Assembly: GCA_049515535.1 (NCBI GenBank)
Contig: JBEKTZ010000001.1
Location: forward strand, 144,599 to 208,598
DNA length: 64,000 bases
Origin: Candidatus Aminicenantales bacterium
Lineage (GTDB): Bacteria; Acidobacteriota; Aminicenantia; Aminicenantales; UBA4085
Direction of reading: 5' to 3'
A program made the position numbers. This document shows, in pieces, positions 1 to 9,000 of this stretch. The first letter of the stretch is position 1; each line of letters begins with the position of its first letter.

Positions 1-3000
1 AATTTGCCGGCGCCGCCAAGCGGCCCTGGCGGACCAATCCGTACGCGATCAGGCCGGGCAGAACGAAGAGGAAGACCGGGAGGATCTTGATGAACCCGGC
101 AAACAACGGGCCGAGTCTGGCCTGTCGCTCGTCCCTGGCGCCCAAAACGCGCTGGACGATGGTCTGGTCGGCGCACCAATACCAGAGCCCGATGATCGGA
201 TAGCCTAGAAAAACGGAATACCAGGGCAACGACGGAGTCTCGGCCGCGGTCCGCAGGATGGTCAGCTTCACCGGCTCGACGGAGGCGGCGAGCCCGCTCC
301 ATCCTCCCACGGCGGCCAGGCCGAATCCGAGGACGCAGCCCGAGCCGACGATCAGGATGATCGTCTGGGCGGATTCCGTGAGCACCACCGCCAGCAGCCC
401 GCCGACGATCGTATAGAGCCCCGTCAGAAGCGCGGTGAGGACGATGCTCGTCCCGATATCGATGCCGAACAGCCCTTTCAAGACAACGGCGCCCGTATAG
501 AGGGTGAAGCCGATGTGGATGAAGACGGCCGAGACGATCGAGAGCGCGGCCAGCCAATCGCGGCTGGCCCGGCTGTAGCGCTTTTCGAGGAAATCCGGCA
601 GGGTGGCCACCCTGGAGCGGATATAGAACGGCGCGAAAAAGAGGGACAGGACGATGAGCAGGAAAGCCGCCATCCACTCGAAATTTCCGTAGGCCAGCCC
701 GTTGACATAGCCTTCCTGGGCCAGGCTGACGAGGTGCGTGGTCGAGATGTTGGTCGAGAAAAGGGCCAGGCCGATCACCGGCCAGCGAAGGGCGCTTCCG
801 GCCAGAAAGTACTCGGCACTCGTGTGCTGCTTGCGTTTGCGCTTTCCCCAGGCCCAAAGTCCGAGCCCGACGATCCCGACGAGATAGACCCCGATGACCA
901 GCAGATCGGGCCAGGCCATCGTGAGGAGAGGATGTGGTTCCATGCGCCGCCGGCCGCCCCAACCTCAATCCGTATGGAAGACTTCTTCCATCGCGCTCCA
1001 AAACTCCTTGGGACTCCGCAGGGGAACTGGAACCTGGCAGGGATCGGTTTCCTTCCACCATTGCTGCGTCGTCGGATCGGCCGCCATCCTGGCCATGTCG
1101 GCCTGGAAATCCGCGCCCGTGTATTCGAAATACGAAAACAAATAGAATTTGCCTTTCTCGACTTCCTTCAAGTAGATCGAGTAATTGCGAATGTGGCATT
1201 CCTTGATCATCTTGAGGACGCCGGGCCAGCACGCGGCATGGAGCTTTTTATAATAGTCGATCTTATCGGGCTTGATGCCGATGACCATGCCGTAGCGTTG
1301 GACCTTCGGCTGGCTGAAAAGCCGGCCGACCATGAAAGCGGAGCCCAGGGCCCCCGCCATGAAAACGACATACTTGCCGAGTTTGAGTTTGGCCATTCAT
1401 TTTTCCTTTTTTAAGAAATTTTGGACGGGCTGGACGTTCGTGATTTTGAGGGCGACCGGCCAGTCCGGCCCCCAGGCGATGGCGATCGCGTTATCCGCCT
1501 TCTCCGCGCCGGTCCATTTCGATCCGGGCTTCCGGATCATCTGCACGGTCTGCTTCCTTTCGACCTGGATATGGAGCCCCTGGGCATCCTCTTTCCACTC
1601 CAAGTCGCCCGCCTGGCTCAGGAGGGTCACTTTCGTCGTCGGCGTGGCCTTCAACGACCTGAGCGTCAGGAGCCGTCCGGGACGATGGGAAGACGTCGCC
1701 GGCTCCGCGCCATAGTCCAGATCGGCGAAGGCATAGACCGTCTTCTCGTCGCGCCGCTGGGTGAACCAAACGTCGCCCTCGTTCGTCACGACCCACGGCC
1801 GGATGCCGCGCACGGCCTCGCCGTAGAGCATCATCCAGAGGCCGAGGTCGCGGAGGCGGTCGACGTCGGGGTCGGCGATCCTGCCCTCGGGACGCGGCCC
1901 GACGTTGAGCAGCATGTTTCCGCCGCGGGCGCGGATGGCAATAAGGTTTTTGATGATTTCTTTCGGCGTGCGGATATCCGGATCCGGCTGATAGGACCAT
2001 TGAATGCTCGTCGTCATGCAGCTTTCCCAGGCATGGTCGGACGCCTGGCCGGGGATTTCCTGCTCGGGCGTCGGGATCTCGCCCCGGCCGATGAAGACGT
2101 CCTGTTTCACCCGCCAGGCTTGTTTCTTGAGCGGTTCGCATTTTCCATCGAACCAGATCATGAAGACGTCCCCATACCGCGTCAGGAGCTCTTCGACCTG
2201 GCCGCGCTCGTAATCCGCGAAATTTTTTTTCAGCGGGCCGAAAAGCTCGGGGCTCGCGAAATCCGCTTCGTAGAGATGGCTGAAGCGATGGCCGGTTTCG
2301 TATTGATAACGGAAATCCCCCGGCGAATAATAGATCCCGACGAGAAGACCTTCCCGGCGGAAAGCGTCGACGAGCCCGGCCAGGATGTCCCGGCCGTAGG
2401 GCGTCCTGGTGATCTTGAAATCGCTGTAGGCGGTATCGAACATGCAAAAACCGTCGTGGTGCTTGGCCGTGAAAACGACGTATTCCACGCCGGCGAGCTT
2501 GGCCAGCCGCGCCCAGGCCTTCGGGTCGAAATCGACGGGATTGAATGTTTCCGCCAGGCCGTAATATTTTTTGACATAATCGTCCGAGGCGTTGTAGAGC
2601 GGCCAGGAGATCTCGGTCCCCATCTGCGAATTCGGCCCCCAGTGAATGAACAGGCCGAGGCCCGCGTCACGGAACATCTCCGTCTTCGCCGGATCGTTCG
2701 AAAGGCGGACCTTGTCTTCGGCCAGAAGCGTCGGGGGCTTCTGGCCCGGAATCTTATCGTCGGCCGGACGCTTCGCGCAACCCAGGATGCCGAGCGCGAG
2801 AACGCCGCACAAAGAGCCGACCCCGATCCAACGGGCCATGGATTTCGAACGGAATTTTCGCATGCTTCTCTCCTTTCTAGGCCTCATATCCGCCGGCTTC
2901 GCGGACGGTCTCATAAAGAGCCAGGACATTGTCCACGGGCGTCTCCGGCAGAAGATAATCATGGCTGGGCGAAGCGATATAGCCTCCCCCCGGCTTCATG

Positions 3001-6000: not shown

Positions 6001-9000
6001 GGCGTCTTTGGCCATGCGGACCCATTCATCGGCGTTGAACTCCTTCGGGTCGAACATTTGGACGAGCTTTTCGTACTCCTCCAGCGGGATCTGGGCGTTG
6101 TTCCTGATCCATTCGCCGTAGTTCGTCTTACCGTTCCACTCGCCGGCCGGGACGGCATACAGGCCCCAGTGGATGAAAAGGCCGAAGCGGGCCTCGCGCC
6201 ACCACTGCAGGCGGGCATCATGTTGGGCCTGCGTTTCGAGCTGAGCGAAAAGCGAAGCGGAGGATAAAACCCCGATGATGACGACAGCGAAAAAAACGCC
6301 TTTCATGAATTTTCCTCTCATTTCGCCTCCTTTTTATTTTTCTCGAGCGTCAGACTGTCGGCCTTGCGAAAGCCTCTCACGATCATATCGCCCGACGGAG
6401 CGACATCGACAACGGCATAGCTGTTGTTTTCGGGGCCGAGGCCCTCGATCATCCCTTTCAGCGTGTAGTAATGAATGCCGCCGATCCGGCTGTACGCCCC
6501 CTCGTGGCGGTGGCCCTGGAAAACCGCGAGCACCTTCCCGGATTGTTCGAGCATCGATCTGACTTTTGCGGCATTCTTGACGTAATAATCCCCGGCGCCG
6601 TCCAACTGCTGGTGAATAAAAACGACGACGGGTTTGGACGAAGCGACCAGCTCGCTTCTGAGCCAATCGATCTCATGGGCCGGAATGTTGGTATCGGCCC
6701 AGGCGAACCGGCCATGATCGTAGGGCGCGCCCTTGGCGTCGAAATTGGCGTCGAGCACGAGAAAACGGACGCCCCGGACATCGAAGCCATAGAAGCTCCA
6801 TCCTTTGGGGATGCCGGTGTTTTCGACCGCGTTCAGGAATTGTTCTTTCGACAAACTGTCTTGGTCATGGTTGCCGAGAACATGGTATCGGGGGCCGAGA
6901 AAACGCCCGAACGCGCTTTCGATCCTCCGGAGATAGGCCAGAGTCCTGGCTTCCACCGGAACCTCGTCCTGATCCTTGAAATCGCCGAGTTCGATGAGGA
7001 AATCGACCCGCTCGCGGTTCATGACCGCGACGCACTCCTCCATTTTCGCCAGGGATTCTCGGAAGGGCCGCCCCTCCCTGGCTTGGCAGTCGGCATAATG
7101 CGCGTCCGTGACGATGCCGAAGCGGATCCCAACCGCTTTTCCAACGATGGAGACCGGCTTGGGCGCGCAGGCCGCGAGCAGACCGACGGCCAGGACCGGC
7201 ATCGCGGCCCAGGCGGCCTTCAGGAAATGACGGCGCTTCATTCGCGACCTCGGGAACGAATCGTCCTCTAGCTTAGTGCAGAGGCAAAAAGGAAGTCAAC
7301 CGGACACTCTTGGAGGAAAACCCTTTTTGGGGTTTCCCTCCAACGGGAGCTTCGCTCTCTGCCACCCTTCCCTGGAGCATCTCGTGAACGCAATTTTGCG
7401 GTTAGGCTATATTTAAAAATGGGGCGCCCCGGTCGAGACGGGGATAGAATTCTTCAAGATTTGAAAATCTTCTCGATATCGTTAAACGCTTTTGTAAGGA
7501 TCTCTTTGACCACGGGGATCTTCTCGGCGCCCGCTTTCCGCGCTTGGTGCCCGATCATGCGGCCGAGGTCGCCCAGCGTATGCATGATCCCGTGCATATC
7601 ATCCCGCATTTCCGATCCCCAATTTCCCCACCAGTTCTTCATCTGTCTGTGGATTTCGTCGGTTTCCTTTTCCTTTCCCGCCAAAAAAGATTTTCCTTCT
7701 TCGGTTATGGTATAGACTTTCTTGCCTTCCTGCTGGACGGATGTGACATACCCTGCTTCCTCGAGCCACTGGAGCGTAGGATAGATGGCGCCGGGGCTCG
7801 GCGAGTAGAAACCGTTGCACTGCTCCTCGAGATCCCGGATGATCTCATAACCGTGCCGCGGCTTGTTCTTGAGCAAATCGAGGATCAAATATTTGAAGTC
7901 GCCTTTGTGAAAGAGCCTTTCTCCCCTCGGCCAAAAACCATATCGTTGTCGATAAAACATTTTACCTCCTTAAGGTTAAAAAGATACTCTTAGATATATC
8001 TAGATATAATTTAGATGGAAAACATTCATTTGTCAAGTGGCTGAGCACCCTGAGCACCGGCTTGCTTTTTTCAAAAAAAAGCATTAAATATTTTTATATC
8101 GATCCGGGAAGCGGTTCAAGAGGAGAGCGCATGCGAACGAAAATCTTTTTATGCCTTTTTATGATTTGCGCGGGGCTGGCATTTTCCGGTTTTCCGAACG
8201 GCGGGCAGACCCCCAAAAACGAGGAACGGGAAACCGATCTCCTGGTCCTGAAAAAACTCGATTGGTTCCGGGACGTCAAGTTCGGGTTGATGATGCACTG
8301 GGGCCCTTACAGCCAGTGGGGTGTCGTCGAATCCTGGAGCATTTGTTCCGAGGATGAGCCCTGGTGCCGCCGCGACATCCCCGATTACGTCGCCTATAAG
8401 AATAAGTACGAAGACCTCAAAAAGACGTTCAATCCCGTGAAGTTCGATCCCGAGGCGTGGGCGCGGGCGGCCAAATACGCGGGCATGCGCTACGTCGTTC
8501 ACACGACCAAGCATCACGACGGGTTCTGCATGTTCGACACGCGACAGACCGATTACAAGATCACGTCGGCCGAATGCCCGTTTTCCAAGAATCCCAAGGC
8601 CAATATCGTCAAGGAGATCTTCGACGCGTTCCGCCGGGAAGGTTTCGGCATCGGCGCCTATTTTTCCAAGCCCGACTGGCACTCTCCGGACTATTGGGCG
8701 CCGGAGTGGGCGACCCCCGACCGGAACGTCAATTATGATACGGAGAAATATCCCGCGCGCTGGCGGAAATTCCGGGATTATACGTACGCCCAGATCGAAG
8801 AGCTGATGACGGGTTACGGGAATATCGATATCCTGTGGCTCGACGGCGGCTGGGTCCGGCCTTATCCTCCGCTCGAGCCAGATCTTCGCGGCATCCTCAA
8901 AAGGCCGTTCAACCAGGACATCGACATGCCGAAAATCGCCGCCATGGCCCGCGGACGGCAGCCGGGCTTGATCATCGTCGATCGCACGGTGACGGGCAAA

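Follow-up and report, generated by a model that had tools for sequence, protein, structure and literature searches.

Known methyltransferases of the URO-D superfamily

The URO-D superfamily is known to include MT1 enzymes that act on aryl ethers as O-demethylases (PMC10418091, PMC13222342). The candidate enzyme that we describe here shares with OdmB, VdmB (Acetobacterium dehalogenans), MtvB and MtoB the superfamily and the proposed role of passing an ether methyl group to a Co(I) corrinoid, and it would likewise need an ATP-dependent activator and a folate MT2, as these are described in the two papers. Compared by description, it differs from them in its fucose context, as opposed to methoxy-aromatics, in partner genes that lie mostly elsewhere, and in a putative His-Cys-His/Asp site. 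The chloromethane MT1 CdmB (PDB 9RUI) also combines the URO-D fold with a separate corrinoid protein, but its site is described as metal-free, hydrophobic and adapted to haloalkanes (PMC13222342).

Type 1 mlp clusters contain several URO-D methyltransferase-like paralogues, each forming its own orthologous group, together with a corrinoid protein and RACE. The account of the Mlps gives them a His-Cys-Cys set and ties them to methyl-Se/S metabolism (PMC10418091), whereas a His-Cys-His set and sugar genes are found here. MtaA of Methanosarcina mazei, a methylcobamide:CoM methyltransferase (4AY7/4AY8), is the best match of our candidate in both sequence and Foldseek searches and has HxC at the same place. 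However, identity is 20-21%, the third ligand is Cys in MtaA, and MtaA, as an MT2, transfers methyl to a thiol, whereas we read the candidate as an MT1.

The sole sugar demethylase found in our literature search is the P450 CYP236A, which acts on 6-O-methyl-D-galactose. It does the same job, unmasking a methylated monosaccharide, and adjoins glycan genes, but it is O2-dependent, releases formaldehyde, has an unrelated fold and is described for the 6-O-methyl sugar only (PMC6292453). The search found no B12-dependent sugar O-demethylase of the present kind. In Bacteroides thetaiotaomicron, BT_0340, BT_0342 and BT_0343 are listed as B12-binding methyltransferase/corrinoid proteins (PMC8941943) and BT_0338 is a GH141 alpha-L-fucosidase (PMC8264420). 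Annotated as methylamine methyltransferases, BT_0338-BT_0343 ('Mta') can be likened to our locus from their published description. RACo was not found in this Bacteroides genome in a control search.

A fucose locus with a URO-D-fold enzyme

The window, meaning the whole 64,000-nucleotide stretch of contig C1 that was analysed, contains a four-gene unit on the minus strand (3947-1) for a URO-D-fold enzyme, a GH29 fucosidase, an L-fucose mutarotase and an SGLT-type transporter (Table 1). The initial annotation had set the URO-D gene in an operon with an alpha-fucosidase, a mutarotase and an SSF transporter, which we confirm: the gene has a GH29 gene on either side, and a mutarotase of the rhaM family and the SSF transporter come after it. 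Judging from the promoter sequence, the URO-D gene is probably the first part of a leaderless transcript; by eye, 7 of its 10 closest relatives have a -10-like hexamer 6-7 nt upstream of the ATG. The PA14-bearing fucosidase gene probably forms a transcript of its own; among the 10 closest loci, L021 alone has a PA14 gene directly upstream.

Table 1. Features of the locus, in window positions
Feature	Position	Strand	Basis or remark
SSF sodium/sugar symporter, 5' part	1..943	-	PF00474; rest runs to contig C1:143925
L-fucose mutarotase, RhaM family	965..1396	-	closest PDB entry an L-fucose mutarotase; start abuts GH29 stop
GH29 alpha-L-fucosidase, 488 aa, N-terminal lipoprotein-like signal (LGC)	1397..2863	-	PF01120, 233 bits
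URO-D-superfamily TIM-barrel enzyme, 356 aa, candidate corrinoid-dependent MT1 demethylase	2877..3947	-	PF01208, 100.6 bits
Codons of D204, H243, C245 and H329, putative metal/catalytic set of the URO-D enzyme	2961..3338	-	orthologue conservation
Sigma70-type promoter, TTGAAA-17-TATGAT	3954..3982	-	consensus match; ends 6 nt upstream of ATG
Second GH29 fucosidase, with PA14 domain	4261..6321	-	313 bp upstream of URO-D gene

The fucosidase within the unit is preceded by an AGGAG motif, and all 23 of its PDB matches are alpha-L-fucosidases. Its neighbour had been called a rhamnose/fucose mutarotase. The rhaM family is correct, but the PDB matches narrow the type to L-fucose and not rhamnose (E 1e-38 for the L-fucose mutarotase 7BYW/7BYU, 1e-6 for YiiL); the score on TIGR02625 is 44 bits (cut-off 99.6). 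This protein has a hydrophobic N-terminal extension and is probably exported. The closest solved structures of the symporter are SGLT1, SGLT2 and vSGLT.

Family, fold and putative metal site

Membership in the URO-D superfamily is clear from the PF01208 score, given a gathering cut-off of 23.9 bits. A structure model (pLDDT 97.5) has MtaA 4AY8 as its best Foldseek match (E 2e-15), while a fold comparison does not separate MtaA (Z 27.7) from UroD (Z 26.9), with an rmsd of 3.1-3.2 over 303-307 aligned residues. The gene had been called MtaA-type, a label that the NCBIfam models do not bear out: it scores 47-59 bits against cut-offs of 235-400 (59 on the MtaA/CmuA profiles TIGR01463 and NF040654, cut-off 235), and no paralogue in the genome exceeds 102 bits where at least 235 are required. 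MtaA is the only PDB relative in a single-sequence search, as had been stated, but a family profile adds UroD enzymes and CdmB 9RUI, the latter at E 5e-6 with only the C-terminal 70 positions matched.

In an alignment of 80 orthologues, N203, D204, H243 and H329 are invariant and C245 is present in 78. H243, C245 and H329 align with the HxC and third Cys of MtaA, and together with the Asp they form a putative His-Cys-His metal site. S/Se-methyltransferases of the superfamily have a His-Cys-Cys zinc site, and its O-methyltransferases are described as having Glu/Asp, or a residue that does not coordinate, in place of one or both Cys (PMC10418091). The set of MtaA/SCMT and type 1 Mlps is thus not that of the window enzyme, since H243, C245 and H329 occur in 78 of the 80 orthologues. 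The initial annotation took the missing third Cys for the O-methyltransferase pattern, but the replacement is by His in all 80, and the rule as given in that source names carboxylates or non-coordinating residues. The invariant Asp204 could be the carboxylate of this rule. Zinc is described as dispensable in some MT1 enzymes (PMC13222342).

Orthologous loci and paralogues

The related loci that we scanned belong to 53 cluster representatives and to 118 of the 393 singletons. Independent, Pfam-based naming of neighbours reproduced the earlier counts: among 80 related loci, 32 have the mutarotase, 8 a corrinoid gene and at least 52 a sugar gene (55 had been reported), and 28 have no sugar gene among the genes scanned. 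The mutarotase is within three genes of the orthologue in 30 loci, which in a quick tree are scattered over branches of Aminicenantes, Chloroflexota, Planctomycetota and Spirochaetota. GH29 occurs in 14 loci and FucI in 2.

The corrinoid genes that share a locus are all from Chloroflexota and represent about two lineages. Clustering of MT1, corrinoid and MT2 genes is absent in this genome, and the full set is present in two of the 80 loci, L039 and L043, with the order URO-D, URO-D, MetF-MetV, MT2, FolD, Fhs, orthologue, corrinoid. Corrinoid genes are embedded among URO-D genes in three further loci (L035, L037, L042), and in the spirochaete G027 corrinoid, RACo and URO-D genes adjoin FucI and an FGGY kinase. 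The family is very large: at least 3317 of 8000 candidate proteins are relatives at E 1e-30, and 9270 clusters (50% identity) are found at E 0.001.

The genome itself has ten URO-D genes (11 profile matches, two within one frame), as previously reported. HxC is present in seven of the proteins, HxD in two and neither in one. Seven of the ten genes have a glycosidase or sugar transporter at most two genes away. The background of 8.2% given for this also holds up, as 4 of 88 scorable centres in a random sample (10 blocks, 128 genes) qualify, or 8-9 when 3-keto-glycoside hydrolase/ThuA genes are counted; at 10% background, a hand binomial gives p about 1e-5. However, the claim that all ten are in deoxy-sugar loci stands for four only: the window gene, the C7 gene, which adjoins RhaT, and the C1b and C9a genes, whose deoxy-sugar links come via their orthologues. 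The SSF-KdgK-KdgA context of the C4 gene is kept in none of 12 orthologue loci. A second paralogue shows a sugar logic matching that of the window gene: in 7 of 13 loci its immediate upstream neighbour is RhaT, and two more loci have GH78 or RhaA.

Corrinoid machinery and a predicted complex

Corrinoid proteins, RACo, a pterin-methyltransferase domain, FolD and Fhs are all encoded in the genome, as had been noted. Two corrinoid proteins with the DxHxxG motif stand alone, one of them at C1:21359-21988. RACo is at C4:245.8-247.0 kb and is not AcsV, because acetyl-CoA synthase was not found in this genome. A MetF-MetV-MT2 fusion gene lies on C5; its pterin domain has 69 bits on NF005719 (cut-off 259) and is 26% identical to the operon-linked MT2 of L043. 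The genome also encodes an S-methyl_trans domain, and a split MetH domain at C4:288 kb. The machinery might have another job, for which the RACo/corrinoid/MttB operon and the split MetH domain offer themselves. Corrinoid proteins of sugar loci are 48-57% identical to the C1 protein, versus 38-46% to the MttB-linked one on C4.

Among carrier genomes tested, 50 of 50 have a stand-alone corrinoid protein and 49 of 50 have RACo. Of genomes that lack the orthologue, RACo is present in 18 of 120 from the same phylum, in 0 of 9 from the same class, and in 47 of 60 from the Anaerolineae-type class of G010. Given this last number, co-occurrence by genome is informative mainly for Acidobacteriota.

The predicted complex of the URO-D enzyme with this genome's corrinoid protein scored 0.85, against 0.00 for the best of three controls, which included neither a true HemE nor another URO-D paralogue. 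Solved pairs attain this mark in 116 of 157 cases and mismatched pairs in 2 of 215, a rough yardstick given our own alignments and the inclusion of Zn. Runs share at least 86% of contacts, and partner pLDDT is at least 83. In the modelled interface, the loop after D204 (207-217) and helix 156-165 of the enzyme meet the corrinoid protein at its cap (51-65) and at residues close to the His of DxHxxG. The model supports binding of the corrinoid protein by the window enzyme, although it may remember methyltransferase-corrinoid complexes of other TIM-barrel families.

Probable role and alternative explanations

We consider it on balance probable that the window gene encodes the substrate-binding MT1 O-demethylase for methylated L-fucose in a three-component corrinoid system. 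For this gene, the earlier proposal of a B12-dependent sugar O-demethylase is better supported than before, owing to the L-fucose mutarotase, the corrinoid protein in all 50 carriers, the predicted complex and the independent neighbour counts; its extension to ten genes, its zinc argument and an MtaA-like role, in place of MT1, did not hold. We infer from the gene context that the group removed is O-methyl. The known enzymes act on aryl ethers, and cleavage of alkyl ethers is more difficult, which counts against our reading. It is unlikely, but well within consideration, that the enzyme is a corrinoid-dependent MT1 for another methyl group, such as the N-methyl of an amino-deoxy-sugar, methyl-inositol, a methyl glycoside or methanol released by glycans. 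Of the 80 loci, 8 have a Creatininase/IolN-like amidohydrolase gene and 4 a DegT aminotransferase gene, which may point to N-substituted substrates. In addition, an MtaB-corrinoid-RACo cluster faces the orthologue in L049, a GlnA-like gene accompanies the C4 paralogue in 5 of 12 loci, and the metal site belongs to a type not described before. However, the creatininase genes are confined to one phylum, and the most constant partners (L-fucose mutarotase, GH29/GH95, FucI) act on neutral fucose.

The 72 loci without a corrinoid gene, and the many Anaerolineae-type genomes with RACo but no orthologue, would fit a corrinoid-independent metalloenzyme of fucose metabolism on a URO-D barrel (an epimerase, isomerase, dehydratase or hydrolytic ether-cleaving enzyme), with corrinoid genes incidental in anaerobes; the several divergent URO-D clades per locus could then be pathway steps. 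We regard this as quite improbable in view of the L039/L043 operons, the corrinoid genes among URO-D genes in three other loci, the corrinoid protein of all 50 carriers tested and the predicted complex. The probability is lower again that the enzyme works in reverse or as an MT2, moving methyl from methyl-corrinoid to an acceptor such as a sugar or a thiol, much as MtaA methylates coenzyme M, and so serving as a methyl sink or in glycan methylation. MT2 enzymes (MtaA) are both the nearest relative of known structure and the best-scoring NCBIfam families, and in paralogue C1a the set is His-Cys-Cys, as in S/Se-methyltransferases, but the window enzyme lacks the third Cys, its context of glycosidases, importers and LacI is catabolic, and L039/L043 have a separate pterin MT2 in the same operon. 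An ordinary uroporphyrinogen decarboxylase is what source records name such proteins and what most databases say, and UroD folds do score as high as MtaA. We nevertheless give a haem enzyme almost no credence, because HemB and HemC were not found in this 94%-complete genome, as already noted in the initial annotation, HemB was not seen in 23 of 50 carriers, and the score on the hemE model TIGR01464 is 19 bits (cut-off 303). The ten divergent copies and the HxC motif also speak against it.

Proposed pathway and implications

Under the O-demethylase reading, the GH29 lipoprotein would act outside the cytoplasm and free (methyl-)fucose from glycans. The exported mutarotase would set the anomer and the SGLT-type symporter would import the sugar; the families of these proteins are shown by their matches, and their substrates are proposed. 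In the cytoplasm, a metal held by H243, C245 and H329, helped by D204, could polarise the sugar O-CH3 bond. The methyl group would then pass to Co(I) of the corrinoid protein that stands alone on C1, a chemistry extrapolated from OdmB/VdmB/MtvB-type enzymes. RACo would reactivate the corrinoid with ATP. The methyl group may pass to folate via the pterin domain of the MetF-MetV-MT2 fusion, and then through FolD and Fhs to formate, or alternatively to homocysteine via the split MetH domain. Free fucose would enter isomerase/kinase/aldolase catabolism, for which there are a FucI-like gene at C1:120.8 kb and a class II aldolase beside Lut/AOR.

The window enzyme is best read as one of four or five URO-D clades that travel together, and the others in the same loci probably serve other methyl positions or other sugars. 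More broadly, and tentatively, since we put it somewhat short of an even chance, these co-inherited clades may be position- and sugar-specific B12-dependent O-demethylases across many phyla of anaerobes, for methyl-fucose here and methyl-rhamnose in the RhaT-linked clade. They would share one corrinoid protein and send methyl groups to formate via the undescribed MetF-MetV-MT2 fusion, as the general oxygen-free route for methylated sugars in glycans of plants, algae and bacteria. BT_0338-0343 would be a gut version, and a large part of the 'uroporphyrinogen decarboxylase' labels in anaerobes would be wrong.

O-methyl groups on sugars block glycan catabolism. A cobalamin route, if true, would explain the use of methylated sugars by anaerobes of sediments, digesters and the gut, and would link the breakdown of fibre to the supply of B12. 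For the corrinoid methyltransferases, the alkyl ethers of sugars would be a new class of substrate, and the metal site would be new as well. A very large family that is now mislabelled would also gain a function.

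A predicted fucose operon with a URO-D-fold gene at its head

We found the gene for the window enzyme at the start of a unit whose sugar is predicted to be L-fucose. This assignment is based on the mutarotase, which matches the rhamnose enzyme YiiL at E 1e-6 only, as against its match to the L-fucose mutarotase (see table), on the SGLT-like transporter and on the fucosidase-only matches of the GH29 protein. A promoter match (TTGAAA-17-TATGAT) ends 6 nt 5′ of the URO-D start, and the space between them lacks a ribosome-binding motif; a -10-like hexamer (read by eye) lies 6-7 nt ahead of the ATG in 7 of the 10 closest relatives. 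These features suggest a predicted leaderless transcript of four genes, of which the URO-D gene is probably the first.

The fucose mutarotase occurs in two forms, one exported and one cytoplasmic (107 aa). Three Planctomycetota loci (L079, L091 and L099) have both, interleaved with URO-D genes. At least five GH29 genes are present in the genome; the third fucosidase of this family is found 4 kb upstream, where it is coupled to a GH38 glycosidase.

Elsewhere in the window, an IS110 transposase and a tRNA-Met(CAT), both after dnaG-rpoD, and then a low-GC stretch (0.41-0.43) make up a probable acquired island. The low-GC stretch holds a 961-aa ORF resembling a secreted propeller/beta-helix protein. 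In a 690-aa protein that adjoins an FGGY kinase, only a C-terminal MobA-like NTP-transferase domain is recognised.

Features of the window, of the genome (G000, contigs C1 to C9) and of related loci (L numbers)
Feature	Location	Strand	Remarks
SSF transporter	extends past left edge of window	-	SGLT sugar carriers nearest
RhaM-family mutarotase	window 965-1396	-	L-fucose mutarotase 7BYW/7BYU, E 1e-38; probably the exported form (signal or lipoprotein extension)
GH29 fucosidase	window 1397-2863	-	PDB matches are fucosidases only
URO-D-fold enzyme	window 2877-3947	-	window enzyme
GH29-PA14 fucosidase	window 4261-6321	-	313-bp gap before URO-D gene
GH29 fucosidase with GH38	window 8062-12911	+	
690-aa protein	window 26417-28489	+	
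Probable island	window 57362-58732 and 60845-63730		
Corrinoid gene, divergent from AP_endonuc_2, OYE flavoenzyme, PFK, 675-aa FAD_binding_2, SDR	L102:3859-11173 (G000:C1:21358-28672)		
MetF-MetV-pterin fusion	L103:6931-9417 (G000:C5:29930-32416)		828 aa
C4 URO-D paralogue	L016:7657-10322		HxD motif
C5 URO-D paralogue	L012:8861-9880		no HxC motif
ResB, CcsA and ChaN-like genes	L154:5286-7468, L156:6018-7268 (G000 C8, C4)		
434-aa protein	L050:11832-13136		kin in L061, L067, L081, L089
LacI-URO-D fusion	L038:4582-6810		also P0127, P0128, L040, L084

Conservation of the gene context

We examined 80 loci of orthologues (57-81% identity), naming neighbours by Pfam for 53 cluster representatives and 118 of 393 singletons; genes were called with a simple caller and may be missed or shortened. 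The mutarotase lies within three genes of the orthologue in 30 loci and anywhere in the locus in 32. GH29 genes are found in 14 loci and glycosidases of any kind in 22; at least 52 loci hold some sugar gene, 44 a further URO-D gene and 8 of the 80 a corrinoid gene. All corrinoid-linked copies are from Chloroflexota. A quick tree of 75 orthologues, leaving out five called at under 300 aa, unites them in one clade (96), with mutarotase-linked copies spread over the Aminicenantes, Chloroflexota, Planctomycetota and Spirochaetota branches. Two loci (L039 and L043) share the order URO-D, URO-D, MetF-MetV, MT2, FolD, Fhs, orthologue, corrinoid; in L043 the caller assigned the MetF-MetV stretch to the wrong strand.

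The URO-D genes that accompany the orthologue are a non-random set, since they form clades with fixed motifs, which are only 20-30% alike to one another: HGC (24), HTC (14, taking in the C1b paralogue of the genome), HSC (12, with its C9a paralogue) and HTD (11, with the LacI fusions). In these fusions, a LacI repressor (HTH and sugar-binding domain) is joined in frame to a URO-D domain, and they would be sugar regulators bearing an enzyme or sensing domain.

Other genes also recur. The 434-aa protein, which has no Pfam or NCBIfam match, adjoins the orthologue in five loci, which belong to different phyla. DUF1638 recurs with RACo, corrinoid and URO-D genes in L116 (genome G027), L118, L119, L049, L040 and L090, joined by CobW GTPases in L116 and L119; both families are likely accessory factors of corrinoid/URO-D systems. 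Four loci titled ‘uncultured Eubacteriales’ (L022, L024, L036 and L096) are placed by the orthologue tree within the Aminicenantes clade (99); two of the four share their gene order. The titles are probably wrong.

URO-D paralogues

The genome indeed has ten URO-D genes, and 7 of them lie at most two genes from a glycosidase or sugar transporter, compared with 4-9 of 88 random centres. The initial annotation placed all ten in deoxy-sugar loci, which is too wide; four can be tied to deoxy-sugars. Among 13 loci of the C7 gene, drawn from several phyla, 7 have RhaT immediately upstream and two more have GH78 or RhaA; these kept neighbours suggest that the C7 gene is a rhamnose counterpart of the window gene. 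The C9a gene has no sugar neighbour in its own genome, and is tied to fucose loci through its HSC clade, which accompanies the orthologues. Three further paralogues adjoin GH38, GH130/GH94 or a sugar porter, as judged from this genome. The C1a gene has a His-Cys-Cys set.

The C4 paralogue was considered as a methyl-uronate enzyme on account of its SSF-KdgK-KdgA context, and this was rejected when those neighbours proved to be kept in 0 of 12 orthologue loci. A GlnA-like gene is near in 5 of the 12, and in 5 Aminicenantes-type genomes the paralogue is coupled to such a gene and to NamZ; the system could act on N-methyl-glutamyl compounds or methylamine rather than sugar. The C5 paralogue has the top Pfam score among the URO-D paralogues; fhs and a thyA-like gene of archaeal type are nearby.

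The absence of a tetrapyrrole pathway was borne out, in that searches of the genome found neither HemB nor HemC. Because haem synthesis was not found, while genes for cytochrome c assembly (ResB, CcsA) and a ChaN-like haem-uptake gene are present, haem is probably imported.

Corrinoid and one-carbon genes

Two stand-alone corrinoid proteins with DxHxxG are encoded in the genome. The gene on C4 is found together with RACo, the ATP-dependent corrinoid activator, and MttB, and that on C1 adjoins the AP_endonuc_2/OYE/PFK/FAD/SDR cluster. The first two genes of this cluster stay near the C1-type corrinoid gene in at least four Aminicenantes-type genomes, and parts of it are kept beside the corrinoid gene in L106-L109. 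The cluster is possibly a catabolic route for the demethylated sugar.

The genome also encodes Fhs, FolD, a split-MetH homocysteine domain and a fusion of MetF, MetV (DUF5981) and a pterin-binding methyltransferase. Of 50 other genomes, 6 (Aminicenantes-type and Phycisphaerae) have the fusion at full length, and in L039 it is two separate genes; we know of no description of it. Searches of the genome detected neither acetyl-CoA synthase (CdhC), the Wood-Ljungdahl methyl sink, nor CobS, for completing its own cobamide. The sugar genes include RhaAB with GH78, a distant FucI, an operon resembling AraBAD and, next to Lut and AOR genes, a class II aldolase.

Function of the window enzyme

The window enzyme has a URO-D fold (model pLDDT 97.5). 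MtaA is its top match by sequence and by Foldseek, and in a fold comparison (VIA) MtaA (Z 27.7) and UroD (Z 26.9) tie and are not separated. That it is HemE nevertheless has next to no probability: it lies outside the HemE family, as it does the MtaA and Mlp families. Its NCBIfam scores are far below every cut-off, and its family profile also finds CdmB, the chloromethane MT1. Residues H243, C245 and H329 align with the zinc ligands of MtaA; together with N203-D204 they are conserved in 78-80 of the 80 orthologues, and all of the 128 wider relatives keep D204 and H243. According to PMC10418091, the S-methyltransferase pattern is His-Cys-Cys, and O-methyltransferases have carboxylate or non-coordinating residues as replacements. 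The zinc site had been taken to show the latter pattern, which does not follow, as the set is His-Cys-His and matches neither pattern. The putative set thus rules out the S-type without proving the O-type. Given the sugar genes around the orthologues, removal of a methyl group other than a sugar O-methyl seems unlikely.

A fucose enzyme working free of corrinoid would suit the small number of loci that have a corrinoid gene, and is decidedly unlikely. The 50 carrier genomes tested, of the 80, include related and hence non-independent ones; a stand-alone corrinoid protein is present in 50 and RACo in 49, and HemB was found in 27. Among genomes lacking the orthologue, RACo occurs in 18 of 120 from the same phylum and 0 of 9 from the same class. 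However, it occurs in 47 of 60 genomes lacking the orthologue in the class of G010 (the Anaerolineae-type control). Co-occurrence with RACo was therefore dropped as general proof, and its signal is strong only for Acidobacteriota. Corrinoid binding was also modelled: folded together with zinc, the window enzyme and the C1 corrinoid protein give a predicted complex that scores 0.85, while the best of three controls (HemE not among them) scores 0.00. Of 157 solved pairs 116 reach the mark used, as do 2 of 215 mismatched ones; the mark is rough here because of our own alignments and the ligand riding along. Contact agreement between runs is 86% or more, partner pLDDT is no lower than 83, and the predicted interface joins the corrinoid cap helix to the loop following D204. 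Complexes of other methyltransferases with corrinoid proteins exist; no URO-D-corrinoid complex is among the PDB matches to the window enzyme (sequence, Foldseek, profile). The reverse direction, or an MT2 role, is very improbable; it would agree with the top match to MtaA, and the separate MT2 genes of L039 and L043 point away from it.

RG-II, a pectin substrate of B. thetaiotaomicron, bears 2-O-methyl-fucose and 2-O-methyl-xylose. According to PMC8264420 and PMC8941943, a fucosidase gene of this bacterium adjoins genes labelled Mta. The only known sugar demethylase that we found is an O2-dependent P450 (PMC6292453), and PMC5849685, on an agarose PUL, reports identifying no demethylase. We found no corrinoid sugar demethylase in the literature, and an earlier report in subscription papers or supplements is possible.

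From the observed genes, families, conservation and co-occurrence we infer a substrate, a cleaved bond and a direction, and consider it fairly probable that the window enzyme is an MT1, with a predicted mode of action like that of the aryl O-demethylase MT1 enzymes. Methyl-fucose would be imported and its O-methyl group passed by the enzyme to a Co(I) corrinoid. From there the methyl group would reach either folate and formate or methionine. The freed fucose would enter isomerase-kinase-aldolase catabolism.
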